Positions 9,295-63,829 of a stretch of 64,000 nucleotides of DNA are shown in pieces (within the stretch, counting starts at the first letter, position 1; each line of letters begins with the position of its first letter). Source of the stretch: a virus (lineage: Duplodnaviria; Caudoviricetes). Below the pieces are notes generated by a model. The model was given only the letters and a program-made list of their open reading frames with translations. It ran no database searches and was not told where the DNA came from. A program made the position numbers and the translations under genes. The stretch covers positions 64,001 to 128,000 of IMG/VR virus record IMGVR_UViG_3300047160_036266; one strand, given 5' to 3'.

Positions 9295-9727
9295 AGGCGT
9301 CCTCCTTCTCCAACTTCTTCTTGACTTCCTCGATTATGGTCGAGGGCTTCGGGTCGGTAAAGAATGCCGCTGGCTCCTTGAGCTTCGTGGTTTTTGGCCA
9401 CGGACACGGCACTCGCTCGTTTTGTTGATTAAAAAACACCTTCTCCTTGACCCGCTTCGTACCTTCGCAGCACTTGCATACGCCATTCTGCTCAAACCCA
9501 AAGGCAAAGCCGGTGCCTCGACAACACTGACATGGGAAACCCTTCTCCTCTATCTCGTTTTCCTTGAGCCAGGCAAAGAAACAGGCCAGGTTGCAGAACC
9601 AGTAATCCCATTTACCATCCTCCGTGTGGTGGCAAGTGGGACAAAGGCGGTTCTCGTACTCGAAGGACAACTGCAAATCAAACGCACCCTCTGCCTTGCA
9701 TTGTGAACAATGGATCACGATAATCAT
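9263..9727 (-). CDS. hypothetical Zn-finger protein
   Basis: multiple CxxC pairs incl. DnaJ-like CRGTG/CEGT. Confidence 0.55.
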   Translation of the reverse strand: MIIVIHCSQCKAEGAFDLQLSFEYENRLCPTCHHTEDGKWDYWFCNLACFFAWLKENEIEEKGFPCQCCRGTGFAFGFEQNGVCKCCEGTKRVKEKVFFNQQNERVPCPWPKTTKLKEPAAFFTDPKPSTIIEEVKKKLEKEDAYGQLLSDDGH

Positions 9728-10230
9728 GACTTTTCCCCCGACTGGTAGGCCGCAGCATTCTGCACGATGTCGTCAATCTGGCTGTCCAGGTCGTGGCTGT
9801 AGATGCCGGTGTTGATCTTCTCCATCTCCTTGCGCATGAAATGGCCCCGGTTGTTGGCCTGCTCACGGGCGGCGTGCAACGCCTGTAAGTGATTGTACAG
9901 CAAGGTTTTATTGTGACGGGCAGCCTTGGAGGCCACCTTGGCGTCCTTCAACATCTGTTCGCCTTTGGCGTACATCTCAGCGGTCTTGTCGCTCTTGCCC
10001 TCCTCCTTCCAGTAGCGGAACTTGTCCGCAAAGAGTGATTCTACTTCCTGCTCCCGCATTAAGTAAAGTGCTTCAGCGTCGGCCAGGGCGCGACCGATGT
10101 AGTCGATCCGCCCCGACACCCGCTCAAAGAACTCGTTGAGGGTACGGTCGGTGAAGCGCAGGTCTTGGGGGTCCATGACCACCGCTTCGTTGCCCAGCTT
10201 GATCTCGCGCTTCTCGGAAAACCTGCTCAC
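9724..10230 (-). CDS. UvsY-like recombination mediator
   Basis: helical/coiled-coil protein of similar size adjacent to replicative helicase; weak resemblance only. Confidence 0.4.
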   Translation of the reverse strand: MSRFSEKREIKLGNEAVVMDPQDLRFTDRTLNEFFERVSGRIDYIGRALADAEALYLMREQEVESLFADKFRYWKEEGKSDKTAEMYAKGEQMLKDAKVASKAARHNKTLLYNHLQALHAAREQANNRGHFMRKEMEKINTGIYSHDLDSQIDDIVQNAAAYQSGEKS

Positions 10231-19344: not shown

Positions 19345-20175
19345 ATGGGACTACCACCTTTATTCACGCAGCGTATGTTGATGTGCTGGCCCAGGCACTA
19401 CAAAGTATCTTATGAAATCAACCCTTGGATGGATGCACACAGCCCCGACAAGGCCGTAAATAGGCCGTTGGCGCTGCGACAGTGGCTCAACCTGCATCAC
19501 ACCCTTATAAAGCTCGGCGTCTTTGTCGAGTATATCGAATCTTCTCCTTCTGTCCCTGACCTCGTATTCACTGCCAACGCCGGCTTGCCATACGGCAAAA
19601 AGGTAGTGCTGTCGAATTTCAAATACAAGGAACGGCAGAAGGAGAAGCGTAAATTCAAAAAATGGTTCGAGGACCACAAGCTGGATGTCCACGTTCTGCC
19701 CAGGAAACTCCACTTCGAGGGGGCCGGCGATGCGCTATTTCTGGATGACACTCTATTTTGTGGCTATGGTTTTCGCTCTGATTACCTCGCTCACGTTGGG
19801 GTGGCTGATGCGCTGGGAGTCAAGAAACTGGTTCTACTCAAGCTTATCGACCCTCGCTATTATCATCTGGATACCTGTTTTTGCCCTCTGCGTCATAACA
19901 CGGCTCTTGTGTTCCCCGACGCCTTCGACCCCGAAAGCCTCGCCGTAATGGACCTGAACCTCAACATGGTCCCGGTGCCGCCCCAGGAGGCCGAACACTT
20001 CGCCTGCAATGCCGTGGTCGTCGGCGTCAACGACGTAATTATCCCCAAAGGATGTCCCTTGACACGGGAGCGGCTTATCGGGGAAAACTTCAGAGTGTAT
20101 GAGCTTGAGATGGGCGAGTTCATCAAAGCTGGTGGTGCGTGTAAATGTTTAACCCTCAATTTGGGATCGTTATGA
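19345..20175 (+). CDS. amidinotransferase/pentein-fold hydrolase (ArgZ N-terminal / DDAH / citrullinase-like)
   Basis: DLVFTANAG, FEGAGDA, YHLDTCF, GGACKCLT catalytic motifs. Confidence 0.88.
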   Translation: MGLPPLFTQRMLMCWPRHYKVSYEINPWMDAHSPDKAVNRPLALRQWLNLHHTLIKLGVFVEYIESSPSVPDLVFTANAGLPYGKKVVLSNFKYKERQKEKRKFKKWFEDHKLDVHVLPRKLHFEGAGDALFLDDTLFCGYGFRSDYLAHVGVADALGVKKLVLLKLIDPRYYHLDTCFCPLRHNTALVFPDAFDPESLAVMDLNLNMVPVPPQEAEHFACNAVVVGVNDVIIPKGCPLTRERLIGENFRVYELEMGEFIKAGGACKCLTLNLGSL

Positions 20176-21110
20176 TGAAACAGATCAGCATGGACTTGGT
20201 TCGCGTGACGGAGGCCGCTGCTATCTCTGCGTCTGCCTGGATCGGGAGCGGGAACAAAGAAGAGGCCGACCGTGCCGCTACCGAATCCATGCGCGAGCGA
20301 CTGAACCAGCTTCCCATGTACGGTGTCATCCGTATTGGGGAAGGTAAAAAGGACGGGGCACCTGGCCTGTTTCGAGATGAAGAAGTGGGAGGACTCAAAG
20401 ACGCTCACATTCATTTGCCCTCCTTCGACATCGCCGTGGACCCCATCGACGGCACCACCCAGACCAGCATCGCCGGCCCGGAAGCCATGAGTGTGCTTGG
20501 GGTTGCGGAAGGTGGCTGCATGTTCCAGACGGATGAGTTTTACATGCTCAAACTGGCCTACGGCCCACAAATAGCTGCCAAGACTATGCTCACCGTCAAT
20601 TCTCCCCTGCAAGAAAATTTGAATCGTGCGGCGAAGGCGCTGGGCAAGGACATCACCAAGCTCACGGTTTGTATTTTGAATCGGCCCCGCCACGAGCAAT
20701 ACATCAATATAATGCGCGAAGTGGGTTGCCGGATCAAACTGATTCAGGACTGCGATATTTCCGGGGCCATTGCCACCTGTTTGCCCGACAGCGGCGTGGA
20801 CCTGCTTTTTGGCATTGGCGGTGCCCCGGAGGCCGTGCTGACTGCCTGTGCGATGAAGTGCCTGGGTGGTTATATGACCACGCTGGTTTGGAATAAAGAC
20901 AACGGCCAGCAGACTGGTTATACGCCACGCGAGCCGTACACGCAAAATCATCTGGTGCAGGGGAATTGTTGCTTTGCCGCCACCGGCGTCACCCACGGCA
21001 GCTTGCTCAAGGGCGTCCGCTGGACTTCCCGTGGTCCCGTCACTAACAGTGTCTTTATGCGCTCTGAGAGTGGAACGATCCGGTGGCTGACGGTGGAGCA
21101 TGGGAACTAG
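20172..21110 (+). CDS. glpX: class II fructose-1,6-bisphosphatase (GlpX)
   Basis: VRVTEAAAI, IGEGKKDGAP, DIAVDPIDGT, DRPRH-like NRPRH, GIGGAPEAV, FAATGVTHG. Confidence 0.95.
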   Translation: MMKQISMDLVRVTEAAAISASAWIGSGNKEEADRAATESMRERLNQLPMYGVIRIGEGKKDGAPGLFRDEEVGGLKDAHIHLPSFDIAVDPIDGTTQTSIAGPEAMSVLGVAEGGCMFQTDEFYMLKLAYGPQIAAKTMLTVNSPLQENLNRAAKALGKDITKLTVCILNRPRHEQYINIMREVGCRIKLIQDCDISGAIATCLPDSGVDLLFGIGGAPEAVLTACAMKCLGGYMTTLVWNKDNGQQTGYTPREPYTQNHLVQGNCCFAATGVTHGSLLKGVRWTSRGPVTNSVFMRSESGTIRWLTVEHGN

Positions 21111-21144
21111 GTTTACAAGTCGCCCCTTTCTGGAGTAATATAAC

Positions 21145-21753
21145 GTGGAGTTTGTCTTTATCCGACACGGGCAGAGCGAACACAATGCCCATCTTACCAC
21201 CGACCTGGACAGCGCCATCACGCCCGCCGGCGCTCAGCAGGCGAAAGAGTTGGGGAAGTGGCTGAATGCAAACTGGCCGTCTATCAGCACTTACGAGGGC
21301 CTATGTTCACCGTACCTGCGGTGCTTGCAAACGGCCCGGATACTGAAGGAGGAGTGCGGGCTGCGTAGCACGGTCGATCCAGGGCCGATGGAAATTCGTA
21401 TAGGATTTTTCCAGCCGGAAGTGCCGTGCCGGGTGGATGAGTACCGGGACATGAATTGGGACTTGTTCCCGGAGCCGATGAAGCTGGGCCGAGAGACAAT
21501 GGAGGAGTTCATGGCCCGGATGCAGGGCTTCTTGGACACCTTCGGGGTAAAGGGGAGGCATCCGGGCAAGAGTTGGTGGGAGCGCTGGGTGGTCATCAGC
21601 CACGGAACGCCGTGTGAGACGCTGGCAGAACTGGCGGCAGGGATATATAGAGTGCCTACCGACTTCGATAAGATGAAGAATTGTTCGCTGTCGTGGGTGG
21701 ATCAGGGCGAGATCGTTTATTTCAACAAGGTGGTTTATGGAGATCACGGATGA
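21145..21753 (+). CDS. histidine phosphatase (phosphoglycerate mutase family)
   Basis: FIRHGQS, SPYLRCLQTA, VISHG. Confidence 0.9.
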   Translation: MEFVFIRHGQSEHNAHLTTDLDSAITPAGAQQAKELGKWLNANWPSISTYEGLCSPYLRCLQTARILKEECGLRSTVDPGPMEIRIGFFQPEVPCRVDEYRDMNWDLFPEPMKLGRETMEEFMARMQGFLDTFGVKGRHPGKSWWERWVVISHGTPCETLAELAAGIYRVPTDFDKMKNCSLSWVDQGEIVYFNKVVYGDHG

Positions 21754-22183: not shown

Positions 22184-22739
22184 GTTATATCAGTGGCAGC
22201 GCAGTGTTGCCACCACCAAGGCCAAGGAAGTTATCCAAGCCTTGATGTACAAACTTCAGTCCAACTACGACGAGGGGAAGCCTTTCAAGTGGACTTTCCC
22301 CGACACGATCTCGACCATGAAGGAGGTTGTCAAGGAATTGGTGGTTGAGGCGATGGAGGCGCAGGGCTGGAAGATGAAGAAGGAAAAAGGCCGCTCCTAC
22401 ACCATCAGCAAAGGGTCCGCTTCTGCTTCTTCCGGCGAGGATTGGTACGGCACCGTTAAGATCGCCGGGGAGAATAGCGGCATCAGCCTGTTGGTAGTGA
22501 AGACCAACCCGGAAATGGAGACGGGCTACGACATCATCACCAGTTCCGACGAGGGCGGTTTGGACCACCACCCGGACAACTGGCATAAGCATGTGGCCGG
22601 TGACGACGTTCATGTTCTGCATGAGGACTCCGGCTGGACCTGGATCGGCAGAATCCACGGCGAGGCGACACCGGCGGAAGTGCAGGCCCTTGAGTTGTTG
22701 AAAATCCACCACGACGGAGGCAAACCGAAAGCAGCATGA
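22131..22739 (+). CDS. hypothetical protein
   Basis: GAGGA RBS before ATG 22131. Confidence 0.6.
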   Translation: MARKPDPELVKMTKSPDELYQWQRSVATTKAKEVIQALMYKLQSNYDEGKPFKWTFPDTISTMKEVVKELVVEAMEAQGWKMKKEKGRSYTISKGSASASSGEDWYGTVKIAGENSGISLLVVKTNPEMETGYDIITSSDEGGLDHHPDNWHKHVAGDDVHVLHEDSGWTWIGRIHGEATPAEVQALELLKIHHDGGKPKAA

Positions 22740-23293
22740 GCGACTTCTTCTTGGACTGGCACCTGGATGACTCCAACCCGCAGGTAGTCTATATCATGCG
22801 GGGCGTTCCGGGGTCCGGGAAGTCCTTCGAGGCGTTGTTGCTGGCCGCTGCGGAACAGATTTTCTCGTCGGATGGCTTCTTCGGTACGACTAAGGAGGAA
22901 TATATCGCCAACTGGAAAGCAGAGAAGCTGGGGGCGGCGCACAACTTCTGCCAGAAGAACGTGCGCATGGCGATGCAGCGCCGCCTGACGCCTATTGTCG
23001 TGGACAACACCAACGTGGTGTGCCGGGACATCATGCCTTATATCGAGATGGCTTTGCGCTACGGCTACCGGGCCGAACTCAAGGAGCCAAGCTCGGAGTG
23101 GTGGCAAACGCTGGTGGTGCCGTACCTGGGCAAGTTCGTCGCTTACCCGGATGAACTGGAGGTTGCGGCCAAGACCCTGTTTGAGAAGTGCCAGCACGGG
23201 GTTCCCTTGGTTACGATCCGCAAGATGCTGATTCGCTGGCACGTCAACGTCTCGGCGGCGGACATGATGAAGTCGATCTTGAGGAGGAAGTGA
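22736..23293 (+). CDS. P-loop polynucleotide kinase-like protein (AAA_33 / N4BP2-like)
   Basis: IMRGVPGSGKS, IVVDNTN, HGVP. Confidence 0.85.
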   Translation: MSDFFLDWHLDDSNPQVVYIMRGVPGSGKSFEALLLAAAEQIFSSDGFFGTTKEEYIANWKAEKLGAAHNFCQKNVRMAMQRRLTPIVVDNTNVVCRDIMPYIEMALRYGYRAELKEPSSEWWQTLVVPYLGKFVAYPDELEVAAKTLFEKCQHGVPLVTIRKMLIRWHVNVSAADMMKSILRRK

Positions 23294-23991
23294 TGAAGGT
23301 CGTGGCTATTTCGGATCAGCACGGATATTTGCCGGATATTCCGGCCTGCGATCTTCTATTGATCGCCGGGGATATTTGCCCGACCGTCAATCATCGGCCT
23401 GATTTTCAGGAGCATTGGCTCAACACCGACTTCCGCTACTGGCTCAAGAAGGTGCCGGCCCGCAAGATCGTGGGGGTGGCGGGCAACCACGATTTGATTT
23501 TTCAAAATGCGCCACATCGGGTGCCGACGCTTCCCTGGACCTACCTTCAGGACGCCGGCACCGAGTTTGAAGGCTTCAAGATTTGGGGCACGCCCTGGCA
23601 GCTTTACTTCTTCGATTGGGCCTTCAACCTCTATGAACCCGATCTGCTCAAAAAGTGGGCGCTCATTCCCAGCGACACCAACATCCTCGTTGCCCATAGT
23701 CCTGCTCGTGGCTACGGGGATGACGCCCCACGGGGCCGGGATACGGAGAAGGTCGGATCGCCCGGTTTGCTGGCGAAGATCACGGAAATCAAGCCCAAGC
23801 TGATGGTTTTTGGCCACATCCATGAAGGCCGTGGCCAATGGCAGTTGAATGACACCATACTGGCCAACGTCACCGTGGTGGACGGCAAATATCGCCTCGT
23901 TTACCCTCCGATGGTCTTTGAACTCACGGGGAAGACCGATGACGGGCATCGAGATGCTGACCGAGTGGATTCGGCGGGTGGGCAATCGTAA
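23293..23991 (+). CDS. metallophosphoesterase
   Basis: ISDQHG, AGD, GNHD, VAHSP, FGHIHE. Confidence 0.9.
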   Translation: MKVVAISDQHGYLPDIPACDLLLIAGDICPTVNHRPDFQEHWLNTDFRYWLKKVPARKIVGVAGNHDLIFQNAPHRVPTLPWTYLQDAGTEFEGFKIWGTPWQLYFFDWAFNLYEPDLLKKWALIPSDTNILVAHSPARGYGDDAPRGRDTEKVGSPGLLAKITEIKPKLMVFGHIHEGRGQWQLNDTILANVTVVDGKYRLVYPPMVFELTGKTDDGHRDADRVDSAGGQS

Positions 23992-34336: not shown

Positions 34337-35699
34337 GTGACATCACCTTTGGTTCGATTAGGGTTCCAGGCATGAAAATACCCATGTATTCACGCATGTC
34401 GTCGTAGATCGCCCGTAGCGTCCCCGTCATGGGATTCTTCTTGCACTCCTCAATGTGGACATCGCAGAAGTGGTGCCAGAAGAATGTGAAAAGCAGAAAA
34501 CCTGCCTCCGTCCAGTCATATTCCTCGAAGGCGGCGTTAATGCGCTTCTTAAAGTCCAGCCACTCATTCCAGACCGCCTCATTCTTGCCATCGTCAGTCT
34601 GCAAGTCCAAGAAACGCTTGGCGTTGCGCCACTTATTGACGCAGCGCTTGCCATATTCCATGACGACGGGGTTGATGCGGGCGTCGGACCCGACCTGGGG
34701 TTGTGCGGCCCAATAGCGGACGCCATCCGAAGTATGCTGGTCCATATACTTGCCAGGAGGGACGAAGTTGCCAGCCGTCTTGGAAATCTTCTTCCCTTTA
34801 TCGTCCAGAGCGTGCCCGCAGATCACTATGGTTCGCCACGGTATCTGGTCGTTGTGAAGGACGCTTTTGATGATTGTGAAGAGCGCCCAGGTGCGGATAA
34901 TGTCGTGCGCTTGGAAACGAACGTCGAAGATTGGGCATTTGAGAGTGAGTTCGTACTGGTTGGCCTCGTGCCAGGCTAGTTGCGGCGACAGGCTGGACGT
35001 GTGCCAGGTGTCAAAAACGATACCCGGCTCGCCGGGGATGGGGATGCCGTAGTTCCGTTCCCGGCTGATAGACCAGTCCGAATCGCACTGATCCAGCCAG
35101 GAGAGGAGGCGGCCCTTGTACATCTCCGGCTTCCAAACGATCTGGTCAATGGCGGCACGGATGCGGGGCAGGTTGTCGAGGACTTTGATGAACCAACCCT
35201 CACCCCGGCGAAGCTCGACCTTAGCACCACTGCGCTCGTAGCAACCGTCTTCGGTCAACTCATTTTGGGAGACGGAAACCTTGGTGAGCGGGCAGTAGTA
35301 GTATTCCCGCTCGGCCTTATACGCCTGGCCCTTGTCCACCAAGTCCTTGAAGGACAGTTCGGCCAGTTTGATGGCGAAGGGGCAGAAGGTGGTGTAGTGG
35401 TGCCAGGACCAGGCCATTGCCAGGCGCATGAAGAGAAGGTGGTAAGCGATGGACTCGTGGTAGGAAAAGTCAATGATCTTGTCCTGGTCGGTGATTCCAG
35501 CGGCCTGGGCGAGCTTTTCGGTGGGCAACCCGTTGTTGTCGTAGCAATAGGGGTAGACTAGGTATTCGCCCTTGATGTGGCGGTGGTAACGGGCAATGAA
35601 GTCCATTTGGGCGTAGCTGAAGACGTGCCCCATGTGGAGGTTGCCGCTAATCGTAGGCGGCGGACAGTCGATGAGAAAGCGTTTGTTCTTGTCGTGCAT
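34311..35699 (-). CDS. valS: minimal valyl-tRNA synthetase (462 aa, no CP1 editing domain, no coiled coil)
   Basis: PPPTISGNLHMGH, DNNGLPTE, DWSISRERNYGIPIP, FDTWHTSS, FQAHDIIRTW, KISKT, FFWHHFCDVHIE. Confidence 0.9.
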   Translation of the reverse strand: MHDKNKRFLIDCPPPTISGNLHMGHVFSYAQMDFIARYHRHIKGEYLVYPYCYDNNGLPTEKLAQAAGITDQDKIIDFSYHESIAYHLLFMRLAMAWSWHHYTTFCPFAIKLAELSFKDLVDKGQAYKAEREYYYCPLTKVSVSQNELTEDGCYERSGAKVELRRGEGWFIKVLDNLPRIRAAIDQIVWKPEMYKGRLLSWLDQCDSDWSISRERNYGIPIPGEPGIVFDTWHTSSLSPQLAWHEANQYELTLKCPIFDVRFQAHDIIRTWALFTIIKSVLHNDQIPWRTIVICGHALDDKGKKISKTAGNFVPPGKYMDQHTSDGVRYWAAQPQVGSDARINPVVMEYGKRCVNKWRNAKRFLDLQTDDGKNEAVWNEWLDFKKRINAAFEEYDWTEAGFLLFTFFWHHFCDVHIEECKKNPMTGTLRAIYDDMREYMGIFMPGTLIEPKVMSHGKTPPAQ

Positions 35700-35857
35700 G
35701 GTGGGTTTGTCCGGTGAGAGAGCGTGTGGAAACGACGGGGCCACGCTCCTCCACGGAGACGCAGCCCGAAGCCACGCCCACACGGACAACAAAACTAGCC
35801 GCAAGAACGGTCATGTAGGTATTATACGTCAGTGTCGCTCAAAACGCTACCCGAAAA

Positions 35858-35952
35858 TGCCCAGGGCGGGACTCGAACCCGCACGGGAGTTACCTCCCAC
35901 GGGATTTTAAGCCGACTTAAATCCCGTGTGTCTACCATTCCACCACCTGGGC
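35858..35952 (-). tRNA. tRNA-Leu(UAA) with 10-nt insertion in anticodon loop
   Basis: GCCCAGG/CCUGGGC acceptor, GGUA D-loop, long variable arm, UUCGAGU T-loop; anticodon loop is 17 nt UUUAAGUCGGCUUAAAA. Confidence 0.9.
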
Positions 35953-36663
35953 TTAGACCTCCCACTCGGCGTCGATGCTGCGGTAAACCCGACCCTTCTT
36001 CACTTTGGGCTGGTCCAGGTCAAAACCCATGTGTTGCTCGATCACGCTTTTCACAGTGGCGGCATCCTCCATCCGTGGAATGGTGGACAGGGTATGGAGG
36101 GATGCCATCCAGAAGTCCCATTCCTTCTTGGTCCCGGCCTTGGAGGGTTCCAAGAAGCCGGACTGGCTGTAATCAGGATATTGAATGCCACCGGGGCCAT
36201 GCTGCATAAAGCGGCGAACCTGGAAATCACGCCCGGTTTTATAGTGGGTCACGTCGCCAAGGGGTTTTTGAATGTGGCCGGACTGGCGCAGGAAGTTCAC
36301 CTGTCCGGCGATGGCGGTAATAATGATGGTGTGCAAGGTCTTGCCCATTGAAAAAACGAGCGGCCCCTTGTCTTGGTTGCGGCGGTCGATGACGTTGTAA
36401 TATATCCGCTCGACCGGCTTGATCTGCTTGGCTTCCTGCTCCCGCTGCTGCCGCCAGAGGGCTGTGAAGAGGGAACAATAGTCGCATTGACCAATCCACT
36501 TGCCATCCTTGAGGGTCATGTGGCAGAAGTGGGTGCCGTTCGCCAGGCGGTGGGTACGGCAGCCGTGGAACAGCTTGCAACCCTGTTTCGGCGGCAGGAT
36601 GCGCAAGTCGAAAGGTTCGATGCCGTTGGGCAGTTGACAGAAGATGTTGTTGAGGTTGCCCAT
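35953..36663 (-). CDS. single-stranded DNA-binding protein, T4 gp32-like
   Basis: CDYC zinc site, RIYYNVIDRR, GPLVFSMGKT, GRDFQV, YPDYSQS. Confidence 0.7.
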   Translation of the reverse strand: MGNLNNIFCQLPNGIEPFDLRILPPKQGCKLFHGCRTHRLANGTHFCHMTLKDGKWIGQCDYCSLFTALWRQQREQEAKQIKPVERIYYNVIDRRNQDKGPLVFSMGKTLHTIIITAIAGQVNFLRQSGHIQKPLGDVTHYKTGRDFQVRRFMQHGPGGIQYPDYSQSGFLEPSKAGTKKEWDFWMASLHTLSTIPRMEDAATVKSVIEQHMGFDLDQPKVKKGRVYRSIDAEWEV

Positions 36664-36813: not shown

Positions 36814-37638
36814 ATGGACTTCACCGAATTTCTGCTTGAGGCCAAGTTTGCCAAGATCATGAACGCCCTCCGGGGTGACGTGCCGCACGTCAACCAAATG
36901 GGCATCATGACCGCCCAGAATCCCTTGGGCGTAGAGGCCCCGGCCCAGCAGAACAACGCCGCCAACCGGGAGCTTCTGAAGGAGCTTCGTCGCGCCAACT
37001 TCCGGGGCTACCCGGTGAATCCCCGCTGGATAATGGGTAAGTTTGGAAATATCGAGGACAGCTACTTCATCCCGCATATCGACCGGAATACCCTCATCAC
37101 CTTGGGTGCCCGCTTCGGCCAGCGGTCGGTGATCTGGGGCCAGAAGATGCAGGACGAAGATGGCACCTACATTCGCTTCGAGTATATCGACACCCCGGCA
37201 GAGACATTGCCTCTGGACCCGTCCACCTACCAGACATCGCAAACGAGGGACGTGGTTCTGGCCGGCAAAGAGGCGGCTGAGCGCAGCGATTTGTTCTCGG
37301 CCAAACCCTTTCCCCGCAGCGGCATCGACAAGCGCACCGGCAGGCCGGCGACGGTTCGGAAGTTCGTCATTCCCTTCTTTGATCCCACCTACGAGAAGGC
37401 GAAATTCGCCCCTGACAAGGCCAGTGTCATGAAGCCGGTCGAGGATTCCGTGTCCGCCGAACCCTCGTTCTTATCTTCCGAATTGCCGGACACGCCCGAA
37501 GTCCGGCGGCTGGTCGAGGAGATTCGCAACCGGGAGGGCAGCTTGTATGCCCAGGGTAAGGTGCAACGCTGGTATTGGGAGAGTCGGGGGCTGCTGGAAG
37601 TGTCCCTTCAGAAGCTTCGTGAAGTTCTTAAAGGTTAA
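36814..37638 (+). CDS. hypothetical protein with DUF3293-like domain, probable virion protein
   Basis: N-terminus MDFTEFLLE; IMTAQNP...EDSYFI...FGQRSVIW. Confidence 0.6.
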   Translation: MDFTEFLLEAKFAKIMNALRGDVPHVNQMGIMTAQNPLGVEAPAQQNNAANRELLKELRRANFRGYPVNPRWIMGKFGNIEDSYFIPHIDRNTLITLGARFGQRSVIWGQKMQDEDGTYIRFEYIDTPAETLPLDPSTYQTSQTRDVVLAGKEAAERSDLFSAKPFPRSGIDKRTGRPATVRKFVIPFFDPTYEKAKFAPDKASVMKPVEDSVSAEPSFLSSELPDTPEVRRLVEEIRNREGSLYAQGKVQRWYWESRGLLEVSLQKLREVLKG

Positions 37639-44577: not shown

Positions 44578-44828
44578 CGCTGCCACAGGGAGTGATATTT
44601 CTTCTGATGCTGCTGGTGGTCCTGCATCTCGGCCACGTCTGTAGTGTGGTAGCCGCAGTCCACGCAGGTGTACTCCTTCTCCAAGGTAGACCCGTCGATC
44701 ACCGTGCCGTCTTCGATGGGTTCACGGGAGTCGAACAGGAATTCCATCTTGGTGCGGGGCGGGATCGGACCAAGGTTGTGGATTTCAATTTCTGGCACCG
44801 TCAACCCTCCCGACGAATACTCTCCCAT
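44556..44828 (-). CDS. hypothetical protein with C2H2-like motif
   Basis: CVDC...H...H; start uncertain. Confidence 0.45.
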   Translation of the reverse strand: MGEYSSGGLTVPEIEIHNLGPIPPRTKMEFLFDSREPIEDGTVIDGSTLEKEYTCVDCGYHTTDVAEMQDHQQHQKKYHSLWQRWKRYWS

Positions 44829-45361
44829 TGAATATACTGCGGCGGAACCCGATCCGTCAACCAAACGCCGTTCTCCGACTGGAAGAACTTGTAGCCATCT
44901 CGGTGCATGTCTCCCGACCGGACCACCAGGATGATCGGCTTGCCCCGCCGGGAACCGACCTTGATGGCGGTGTCGGTATCGGGTGACAGGTGGACGTGGT
45001 GGCGATCCATCCGCAGCAAACCCTTGGTCTTAATTTCGGCCAGGAAACGATTTACCGTCCCATGATATAGTAGGGCCGGCGGCTCCTTCTCTTCAAGCTG
45101 GAGGTCAACGGGCGTTGAATGGCCCTGGTTGGCTCGGATGAGGGTCTGGGTTGAGTCCAGCGAAAAGCGCTTCTTGTCGTTGAGTTTGACGCACTCCTTG
45201 ATTTCTTCCAGGGTCACAGGGAAGTGCTTCTGGCGGGCACCTTCGATGACTGCGGCGATTGAAACCCACCCGCCGGGCATGAGGGTGAGGCCAAGTTCCT
45301 CCGGCTCGTGGCGAAGGTACTTGGCAAGGAATTTGCTAACACGGATGAGTTGAGGAGTCAT
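44801..45361 (-). CDS. kptA: RNA 2'-phosphotransferase Tpt1/KptA
   Basis: SKFLAKYLRH, KKRF, IRANQGHS, LYHGT, RHHVHLS, NGVWLT. Confidence 0.95.
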   Translation of the reverse strand: MTPQLIRVSKFLAKYLRHEPEELGLTLMPGGWVSIAAVIEGARQKHFPVTLEEIKECVKLNDKKRFSLDSTQTLIRANQGHSTPVDLQLEEKEPPALLYHGTVNRFLAEIKTKGLLRMDRHHVHLSPDTDTAIKVGSRRGKPIILVVRSGDMHRDGYKFFQSENGVWLTDRVPPQYIQWESIRREG

Positions 45362-63755: not shown

Positions 63756-63829
63756 TGGCACGGGCCGGACCTGCCCCGGCAGCATCACTGATTTTAAGTC
63801 GGTGTGGTCTTCTTCTTGCCTACCGTGCC
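63756..63829 (-). tRNA. non-canonical 74-nt tRNA, anticodon UAA (Leu codon UUA)
   Basis: GGCACGG/CCGUGCC-A; CACCGA-CUUAAAA-UCAGUG; GCCGG-GGCAGGU-CCGGC. Confidence 0.78.

Follow-up and report, generated by a model that had tools for sequence, protein, structure and literature searches.

The closest described systems to the locus studied here are the 'enigmatic introns' of Lak megaphage tRNA genes; the paper that reported them stated that no earlier description of introns in phage tRNAs existed and noted that large phages may commonly carry them (Devoto et al. 2019, PMC6784885; preprint 10.1101/356790). No mechanism for the removal of phage tRNA introns was reported in the literature we searched. 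Splicing of tRNA by enzymes is considered characteristic of archaea and eukaryotes, and spliced pre-tRNAs are known to contain a helix between anticodon and intron. To our knowledge, the tRNA introns established so far in bacteria are all self-splicing group I introns, neither bacteria nor their phages are known to splice tRNA with proteins, and the 'introns' of huge-phage tRNAs have been reported a single time, without an explanation. The group I intron that interrupts tRNA-Leu(UAA) in cyanobacteria and plastids is self-splicing, exceeds 200 nt and lies at 34/35. Judged from sequence, the interrupted tRNA-Leu(UAA) gene described below is best read as a member of the huge-phage 'enigmatic introns', as a very small variant at a non-canonical position.

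The stretch of DNA analysed (the window, 64,000 nt) comprises bases 64001-128000 of a single 343,421-bp virus record (G000). The record is flagged 'provirus', is rated 69% complete and encodes a gp32-like protein, several cut-down aminoacyl-tRNA synthetases and helicases. The gp32-like and ValRS proteins are present too on a 669,797-bp contig, and the true genome may be about twice the 343 kb of the record. ARAGORN found tRNAs for leucine, phenylalanine and serine only in the 343-kb record. Its class II leucine set consists of UAG, CAA, GAG and CAG tRNAs together with the insert-bearing gene, the sole class II UAA isoacceptor within the record. Since the other four are already present, UAA is the expected fifth class II leucine anticodon.

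The insert-bearing gene is 95 nt long and was found by both ARAGORN and Rfam (Table 1). Direct reading of the tRNA gave an acceptor stem GCCCAGG/CCUGGGC, discriminator A73, a 3-bp D stem with GG in the D loop, an anticodon stem CGGGA/UCCCG, a long variable arm of 17 nt and a normal T arm with a TUC-type T loop. These are the features of a class II tRNA-Leu, and the architecture matches the four other class II leucine tRNAs of the phage. The anticodon loop as encoded has 17 nt, UUUAAGUCGGCUUAAAA, made up of the insert UUUAAGUCGG followed by CUUAAAA. A 7-nt loop with U33 and a leucine anticodon is absent from this form, and CUUAAAA arises only on removing 10 nt at 31|32. The encoded loop folds into a hairpin in which UUUAAG pairs with CUUAAA around UCGG, burying the anticodon (RNAfold MFE -48.2 kcal/mol, z = -4.2). 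ARAGORN, Rfam, direct reading and RNAfold thus bear out the preliminary description of a tRNA-Leu(UAA) whose anticodon is masked by an intron-like insert. Its statement that no bulge-helix-bulge (BHB) is evident also stands, as the folds show a continuous helix and a tetraloop.

Table 1. Features of the interrupted tRNA gene, its neighbours and candidate RNA-processing genes, in window coordinates
Feature	Position	Strand	Basis and remarks
Class II tRNA-Leu(UAA) gene with insert	35858..35952	-	ARAGORN; Rfam RF00005, 50.6 bits; 20/20 stem pairs formed
Anticodon stem, 5' strand CGGGA	35922..35926	-	Segmentation; pair 27-43 is C-G, G-C or A-U by lineage
Anticodon stem, 3' strand UCCCG	35900..35904	-	Segmentation
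10-nt insert UUUAAGUCGG between tRNA nt 31 and 32	35912..35921	-	Alignment to uninterrupted phage tRNA-Leu(UAA) and three insert-bearing orthologs
7-nt anticodon loop CUUAAAA (anticodon UAA at 35907-35909)	35905..35911	-	Invariant in 4/4 lineages
Armless (class I-shaped) tRNA with normal CUUAAAA loop	63756..63829	-	Anticodon arm holds reverse complement of insert
gp32-like ssDNA-binding protein gene	35953..36663	-	Pfam PF08804; directly upstream of tRNA in all lineages
Mini-ValRS-like class I synthetase gene, 462 aa	34311..35699	-	Pfam and homologs; 158 nt downstream of tRNA in all lineages
Tpt1/KptA RNA 2'-phosphotransferase	44801..45361	-	PF01885, E = 2e-51
P-loop (AAA_33) kinase, candidate 5'-end healing enzyme	22736..23293	+	Profile match
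Calcineurin-like metallophosphoesterase, candidate 3'-end healing enzyme	23188..23991	+	Start overlapped by kinase gene

The 5' end of the tRNA is the base right after the gp32-like stop codon, with no spacer. Both this gene (junction 35952/35953) and tRNA-Leu(UAG) (junction 41305/41306) abut an upstream stop codon, which in the second case belongs to a RecD-like helicase gene. RNase P cleavage would therefore set the 3' ends of the gp32-like and helicase messages, a tRNA-punctuation layout. Between the tRNA and the mini-ValRS gene lies a motif, GTATAATACCTnCATG (35809-35832, minus strand), which is kept in the window and in two related lineages (L288 and L138 below) and is probably the ValRS promoter.

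Relatives were recovered with the gp32-like and mini-ValRS proteins as anchors, giving three further lineages. The gene order gp32-like, tRNA, mini-ValRS is common to all four, and each carries an insert at 31|32. The closest relative, the lineage of L288 (JGI; identical to L289 from Logan), whose gp32 is 80% identical to that of the window, has a 10-nt insert with one change, AUUAAGUCGG. In that of L138 (IMG/VR; identical to L278-L281 from four other assemblies), with a ValRS 79% identical to that of the window, the insert is UUAAGCCAGGCAA, 13 nt. The most divergent lineage (L005 = L137 = L140; ValRS 65% identical) has a 21-nt insert with its own CCGC/GCGG hairpin. Every insert is flanked by the last anticodon-stem pair (A31-U39) and an intact CUUAAAA, and in alignment the uninterrupted phage tRNA-Leu(UAA) genes show the same site empty.

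The preliminary description had proposed comparison with related genomes, and the comparison excluded an artefact. The 10-nt form recurs in L288 and L289, independent assemblies with one base changed, and the 13-nt form in five assemblies. In addition, an ENA contig of the window's own phage has an identical 253-nt gap between gp32 and ValRS. Because the insert recurs in independent assemblies of relatives and the ENA contig has the same gap, the insert is, on this comparative evidence, real and old rather than the product of misassembly or of a recent duplication. Across 35400-36400, the unitigs of Logan contigs from four soil runs break at the shared tRNA 3' end, and none spans the loop.

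Other searches returned little. No relative was matched by blastn among INPHARED phages, the exact anticodon-arm pattern had no match in IMG/VR, and an IMG/VR scan with a single ValRS protein gave no relatives, whereas the alignment-based scan did find them. Among the matches listed from a metagenome pattern scan, most were ordinary tRNA-Leu(UAA) genes with GGTAGAC in the acceptor. A near-identical uninterrupted version of the window tRNA was not found, the nearest uninterrupted tRNA on a phage contig matching at 78/85 positions. The tRNA programs themselves respond unevenly to such genes. ARAGORN without intron mode misses the L138 and L005 genes and in intron mode calls them Leu(taa) with 13- and 21-nt introns; a low-threshold ARAGORN tRNA search gave noise only; and the L138 gene was undetected by Rfam at E <= 0.01 in a 60-kb search. 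As ARAGORN in default mode misses or mis-assigns such genes, the tRNA inventories of huge phages are probably under-counted.

The orthologs also fix the register of the insert. UUAA occurs twice in the window loop and removing any 10 contiguous loop bases leaves UAA, so the window alone is ambiguous. The preliminary description had considered the canonical 37/38 intron position as one of two options. That register, in which the six 5' bases are kept, gives the anticodons UAA, UAA, AAG and CCG across the four lineages and was rejected. An insert at 34/35, where the cyanobacterial group I intron sits, is incompatible with L138 and L005. By contrast, removal at 31|32 leaves C32, U33, a UAA anticodon and the leucine loop CUUAAAA in 4/4 lineages; 32|33 works everywhere too, less plausibly. 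A single nuclease cutting the UUAA word twice would fit the window, but in L138 the loop would come out at 6 nt, and L005 lacks the first site.

Two automatic readings of the anticodon were likewise discarded. The ARAGORN call of tRNA-Leu(aag) is ruled out by the orthologs. With option -i, ARAGORN calls the window gene tRNA-Stop(tta) with an 8-nt intron, a reading that needs a shifted stem. The closing U-A pair of that stem is absent in L288, and the stem is non-existent in L138 and L005, both of which ARAGORN -i calls Leu(taa). TAA is moreover the commonest stop codon of the phage, ending 137/285 long ORFs, which does not fit a suppressor tRNA with a UUA anticodon.

Segmentation of the four genes showed that 20/20 stem pairs are formed in 4/4 lineages. 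Seven pairs occur with more than one pair type and six of these have changed on both sides, namely 27-43, 28-42, 2-71, 5-68, 6-67 and 11-24, while 1-72 occurs as G-C and as G-U. L138 differs in the sequence of its variable arm, which still forms a stem. Between the window and L005, 82/85 exon positions are identical, whereas the 160-nt downstream flanks match at 75/160 positions, against 75.5 for shuffled sequence, and the inserts are unrelated. Overall, exon identity between lineages with randomised flanks is 96-98%, and all four retain an intact T loop and anticodon loop as well as A73. This comparison marks out the exons, 7-nt loop included, as an island under strong purifying selection, and the insert as drifting like neutral DNA. 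Conserved exons around a drifting insert are the pattern expected of an intron in a working gene, which argues against a pseudogene; neither lost stem pairs or loop residues nor neutral drift, the marks of tRNA pseudogenes, were seen. The fixed CUUAAAA in turn disfavours roles that are blind to the anticodon loop, such as RNase P punctuation or mere leucine carriage.

Set beside the known systems, the locus most resembles the Lak and other huge-phage introns. In both, a huge phage carries a tRNA made overlong by an anticodon-region insert that is conserved among relatives, belongs to no Rfam class and has no known splicing mechanism; here the insert lies in a 343-kb virus record and is common to related phages. 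The Lak introns differ in lying near 37/38 and in being near-identical across cohorts, whereas the inserts described here are 10-21 nt long, lie at 31/32, are free in sequence between lineages and pair with the anticodon. Position 31/32 is unusual for introns. With archaeal and eukaryal BHB introns (EndA/Sen, with RtcB or Trl1 plus Tpt1) the locus shares a short loop insert, an anticodon-insert helix, a free intron between conserved exons and a Tpt1 gene. It differs from them in its position, its bacterial host and the lack of any EndA homolog found, PF01974 having been searched for in G000 and related records. A BHB needs at least about 11 intron nucleotides plus a loop, so the 10-nt insert is too short to form one, and the folds contain neither a BHB nor a relaxed BHL. 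The group I intron interrupts the same tRNA species in the anticodon loop, but the window insert is 10 nt long with no catalytic core, Rfam finds only a tRNA at the locus, and L138 and L005 exclude the 34/35 position.

The phage appears to have a use for a UUA-reading tRNA. UUA accounts for 356 codons, or 4.5% of leucine codons, and is present in 173/285 (61%) long ORFs; judged from this usage, such a tRNA is useful to the phage. The preliminary description had raised a conditional switch for UUA decoding. In Streptomyces, bldA is the same isoacceptor, and the genome here is likewise fairly GC-rich with rare UUA. However, bldA has no insert, and the UUA codons of the phage are too widespread to be confined to a few regulatory genes, leaving little support for a switch.

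A second tRNA with a UAA anticodon, the armless one in Table 1, belongs to the phage's armless leucine-anticodon set and is a possible alternative UUA decoder. With it present, a decoding role of the interrupted gene could be redundant. The preliminary description had noted that the insert is the exact reverse complement of a stretch in this tRNA, with only the last 4 nt independent of the internal palindrome, and had allowed that this may be chance. The match is indeed exact, the sequence CCGACTTAAA having exactly two window occurrences, at 35912-35921 and within the armless tRNA at 63793-63802 (minus strand). The palindrome accounts for six of the ten bases, 8/10 would arise from the phage's own stem, and the independent information amounts to two to four bases. 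In the 13-nt relative the spacer within the insert is CCAGGCAA in place of UCGG. Because so few bases are independent and the spacer differs in that relative, the match is probably chance.

Taken together, the fixed insert site, the freedom of the insert in sequence and length (10, 10, 13 and 21 nt) and the selection on the tRNA body and CUUAAAA amount to micro-intron-like behaviour. Our leading reading, held tentatively and with a little less than even confidence, is that the insert at 31|32 of this selected tRNA-Leu(UAA) gene is micro-intron-like and must be removed for decoding, as a 17-28-nt loop could not decode. The tRNA would be transcribed behind the gp32-like gene and released by RNase P, the insert would be cut out at 31|32 and the halves rejoined. 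The product would be the fifth member of the class II leucine tRNA set, serving the 356 UUA codons. With no fixed sequence in the insert to go by, the enzyme making the cuts would need either to gauge its sites by distance from the tRNA body or to recognise the helix between anticodon and insert; in three of the four lineages the insert starts with UUAAG, which pairs with CUUAA of the loop. Rejoining could be carried out by the phage kinase, phosphoesterase, Rnl2-type ligases and Tpt1.

Enzymes that could perform the later steps are encoded by the phage. Tpt1, the kinase and the phosphoesterase, named in the preliminary description, are all present (Table 1), and two PF09414 RNA ligases are encoded elsewhere in the genome. 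Tpt1 is a candidate for the last step of a heal-and-seal pathway and lies about 9.5 kb from the tRNA also in the 13-nt relative G003. The set resembles tRNA repair systems (T4 PrrC/Pnkp/Rnl1, the Pnkp type and yeast/plant Trl1-Tpt1), in that a kinase, a metallophosphoesterase, Rnl2-family ligases and Tpt1 could rejoin tRNA halves. Repair differs in that it restores a cut tRNA, and we do not know of it removing extra nucleotides; the window tRNA needs a nuclease that cuts twice, for which no candidate was identified. EndA (PF01974) gave no match in G000 or in five to six related records, in searches that detected archaeal controls. RtcB is absent from G000 and present in only one of the relatives, and Rnl1 (PF09511) had no match in G000 in a search run without a positive control. 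Tpt1 is missing from two more distant huge phages with many insert-bearing tRNAs (G005 and G006) and was not found in the 32-kb L005 record. The absence of EndA, RtcB and a BHB, together with the lack of Tpt1 in G005 and G006, weakens the link of the repair enzymes to the tRNA. Repair genes are also standard jumbo-phage equipment against host anticodon nucleases (PMC7824862). From gene content, they make rejoining feasible, and nothing ties them to the interrupted tRNA.

Some neighbouring genes were also inspected. The DUF3293 gene beside gp32 (36814-37638, plus strand) was tried as the endonuclease and rejected: its best structural matches are SAM lyases, it has no likeness to nucleases and it is not conserved in the L005 lineage. 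Its 274-aa protein has 379 relatives at E <= 0.001. In the PDB, the confident AlphaFold model (pLDDT 93) has notable matches only to phage T3-type SAM lyases, all of them weak (E = 4.5e-3 at best, with TM 0.58 on the target); on this model, an anti-restriction function of the family is possible. The small ORFs between ValRS and the helicase had no family match. Just upstream of the kinase/phosphoesterase pair, at 20145-21753 (plus strand), lie genes for a GlpX-type fructose-1,6-bisphosphatase and a histidine-phosphatase-family protein.

The most far-reaching form of the micro-intron reading is that this soil megaphage clade performs protein-catalysed tRNA splicing in a bacterial host, with a body-measuring endonuclease excising the 10-21-nt micro-intron at 31/32 and the kinase, phosphoesterase, Rnl2-type ligase and Tpt1 rejoining the halves. 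We regard this specific scheme as unlikely; if it were true, bacterial and phage Tpt1 would gain a long-sought natural substrate. The locus is a minimal case, with a 10-nt insert far too small for a ribozyme at a fixed non-canonical site, and the natural variants of 10, 13 and 21 nt with clearly selected exons make it a well-controlled one. Removal of the insert would imply a previously unknown splicing endonuclease and would supply the phage Tpt1 and RNA ligases with a physiological substrate. Should the insert instead be kept, the phage makes a tRNA-shaped RNA whose anticodon loop is selected for a non-decoding purpose.

This latter case is the strongest of the rival explanations, possible though rather unlikely: the insert would never be removed and the RNA would be kept for another job. 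It could act as RNase P/Z 'punctuation' separating gp32 from the ValRS message, as a leucine carrier insulated from the ribosome, or as a decoy or partner of a protein that reads the tRNA-Leu(UAA) anticodon loop, for example an anticodon nuclease. Punctuation would suit the direct junction with the gp32-like stop codon, but this placement does not discriminate, as the normal tRNA-Leu(UAG) is placed likewise against the helicase gene. Charging could survive the insert, since bacterial LeuRS does not recognise the anticodon, and T4-like phages provide a precedent in making stable tRNA-like RNAs of unknown role. The second, armless UAA tRNA and the lack of a splicing enzyme that can be named (EndA and RtcB were not found in G000) also fit a non-decoding RNA. 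Punctuation and leucine carriage would, however, leave the loop unconstrained, yet CUUAAAA is invariant amid randomised flanks; only the decoy version explains this.

An improbable alternative is that a nuclease, an integrase or a replication template switch left the insert as a scar at a loop-edge hot spot, in a slowly decaying pseudogene. The UUUAAG of the insert repeats the adjacent CUUAAA in inverted form, the outcome expected of template switching, and the unrelated inserts of the window and L005 could be independent events. Furthermore, 21 IMG/VR contigs hold only the 3' part of a tRNA-Leu(UAA), starting GA|CUUAAAA, so the loop edge is a common recombination boundary, in keeping with a hot-spot origin of the scar. 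Such an origin does not explain exon conservation, and decay is hard to reconcile with exons that are 96-98% identical despite randomised flanks, with all stem pairs kept and six of them compensatory, or with A73, the T loop, the anticodon loop and the gene position retained in four lineages. The recent inactivating inverted micro-duplication considered in the preliminary description fails as well: the insert site is common to lineages whose ValRS proteins are 65-79% identical, and the exons are under purifying selection with compensatory changes. The 3'-part loci (L168, L176, L186, L188 and 17 other IMG/VR loci) have a form typical of attachment sites of elements integrating at the anticodon loop, and their boundary coincides with the insert site.

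Still less probable is decoding with the insert in place, looped out at 31/32 while CUUAAAA forms a normal 3'-stacked loop. The insert always lies 5' of C32, leaving the U-turn and 3' stack contiguous, and the 21-nt insert forms its own hairpin. Some natural tRNAs tolerate a loop expanded by one nucleotide on its 5' side, but we know of no tRNA with a 17-28-nt loop that works on the ribosome, and in three of the four lineages the insert, being paired with the anticodon, would be a competitor of the codon. An assembly or sequencing artefact, or an ochre (UAA) suppressor tRNA, is hardly credible: the tRNA-Stop(tta) call and the Logan contigs that stop short of the loop leave room for one or the other, but the insert recurs in two other assemblies with one change and in five as the 13-nt form, the shifted stem is lost or absent in the other three lineages, and TAA is in such frequent use as a stop.

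Other interrupted or overlong tRNA genes were encountered among the phages searched. The two more distant huge phages G005 (IMGVR_UViG_3300049215_000771, 532 kb, 59 tRNA hits) and G006 (IMGVR_UViG_3300020429_000539, 488 kb, 68 tRNA hits) are complete; EndA was not found in either, and RtcB is present in one of the two. Roughly ten of their tRNA genes (L149-L158), 94-127 nt in length, have a large insert within the anticodon loop or next to it; L157 shows a long variable arm only. The inserts of L149, L151 and L152 have a common motif, a hairpin followed by CGA...ACGGUUA, and may form a small structured RNA family. AT-rich gut phages carry tRNA-Leu(UAA)-like genes (L017 at 2024-2127 on the plus strand, L050, L067 and L095) with a near-invariant 27-nt insert before CUUAAAA. 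Their acceptor stems covary between members, they fall below the Rfam tRNA threshold, and a DUF2693-FD RNA lies just upstream of the L017 gene. In L082 (751-853, plus strand; Rfam 45.8 bits) a tRNA-Leu(UAA) with a normal anticodon loop is interrupted by a GC-rich perfect palindrome of 20 nt where the D loop meets the 3' strand of the D stem, resembling the hairpin footprints of tRNA-invading nuclease cassettes. Finally, a related Ser/Phe/Leu tRNA cluster, L001, contains a 114-nt tRNA-like gene (9626-9739, plus strand; Rfam 37.7 bits) whose variable region spans 41 nt and whose anticodon arm is aberrant, possibly with a GAA loop on an interrupted stem. This locus also encodes a 77-nt armless Leu(GAG) tRNA whose acceptor and T arm are the same as those of the window tRNA.
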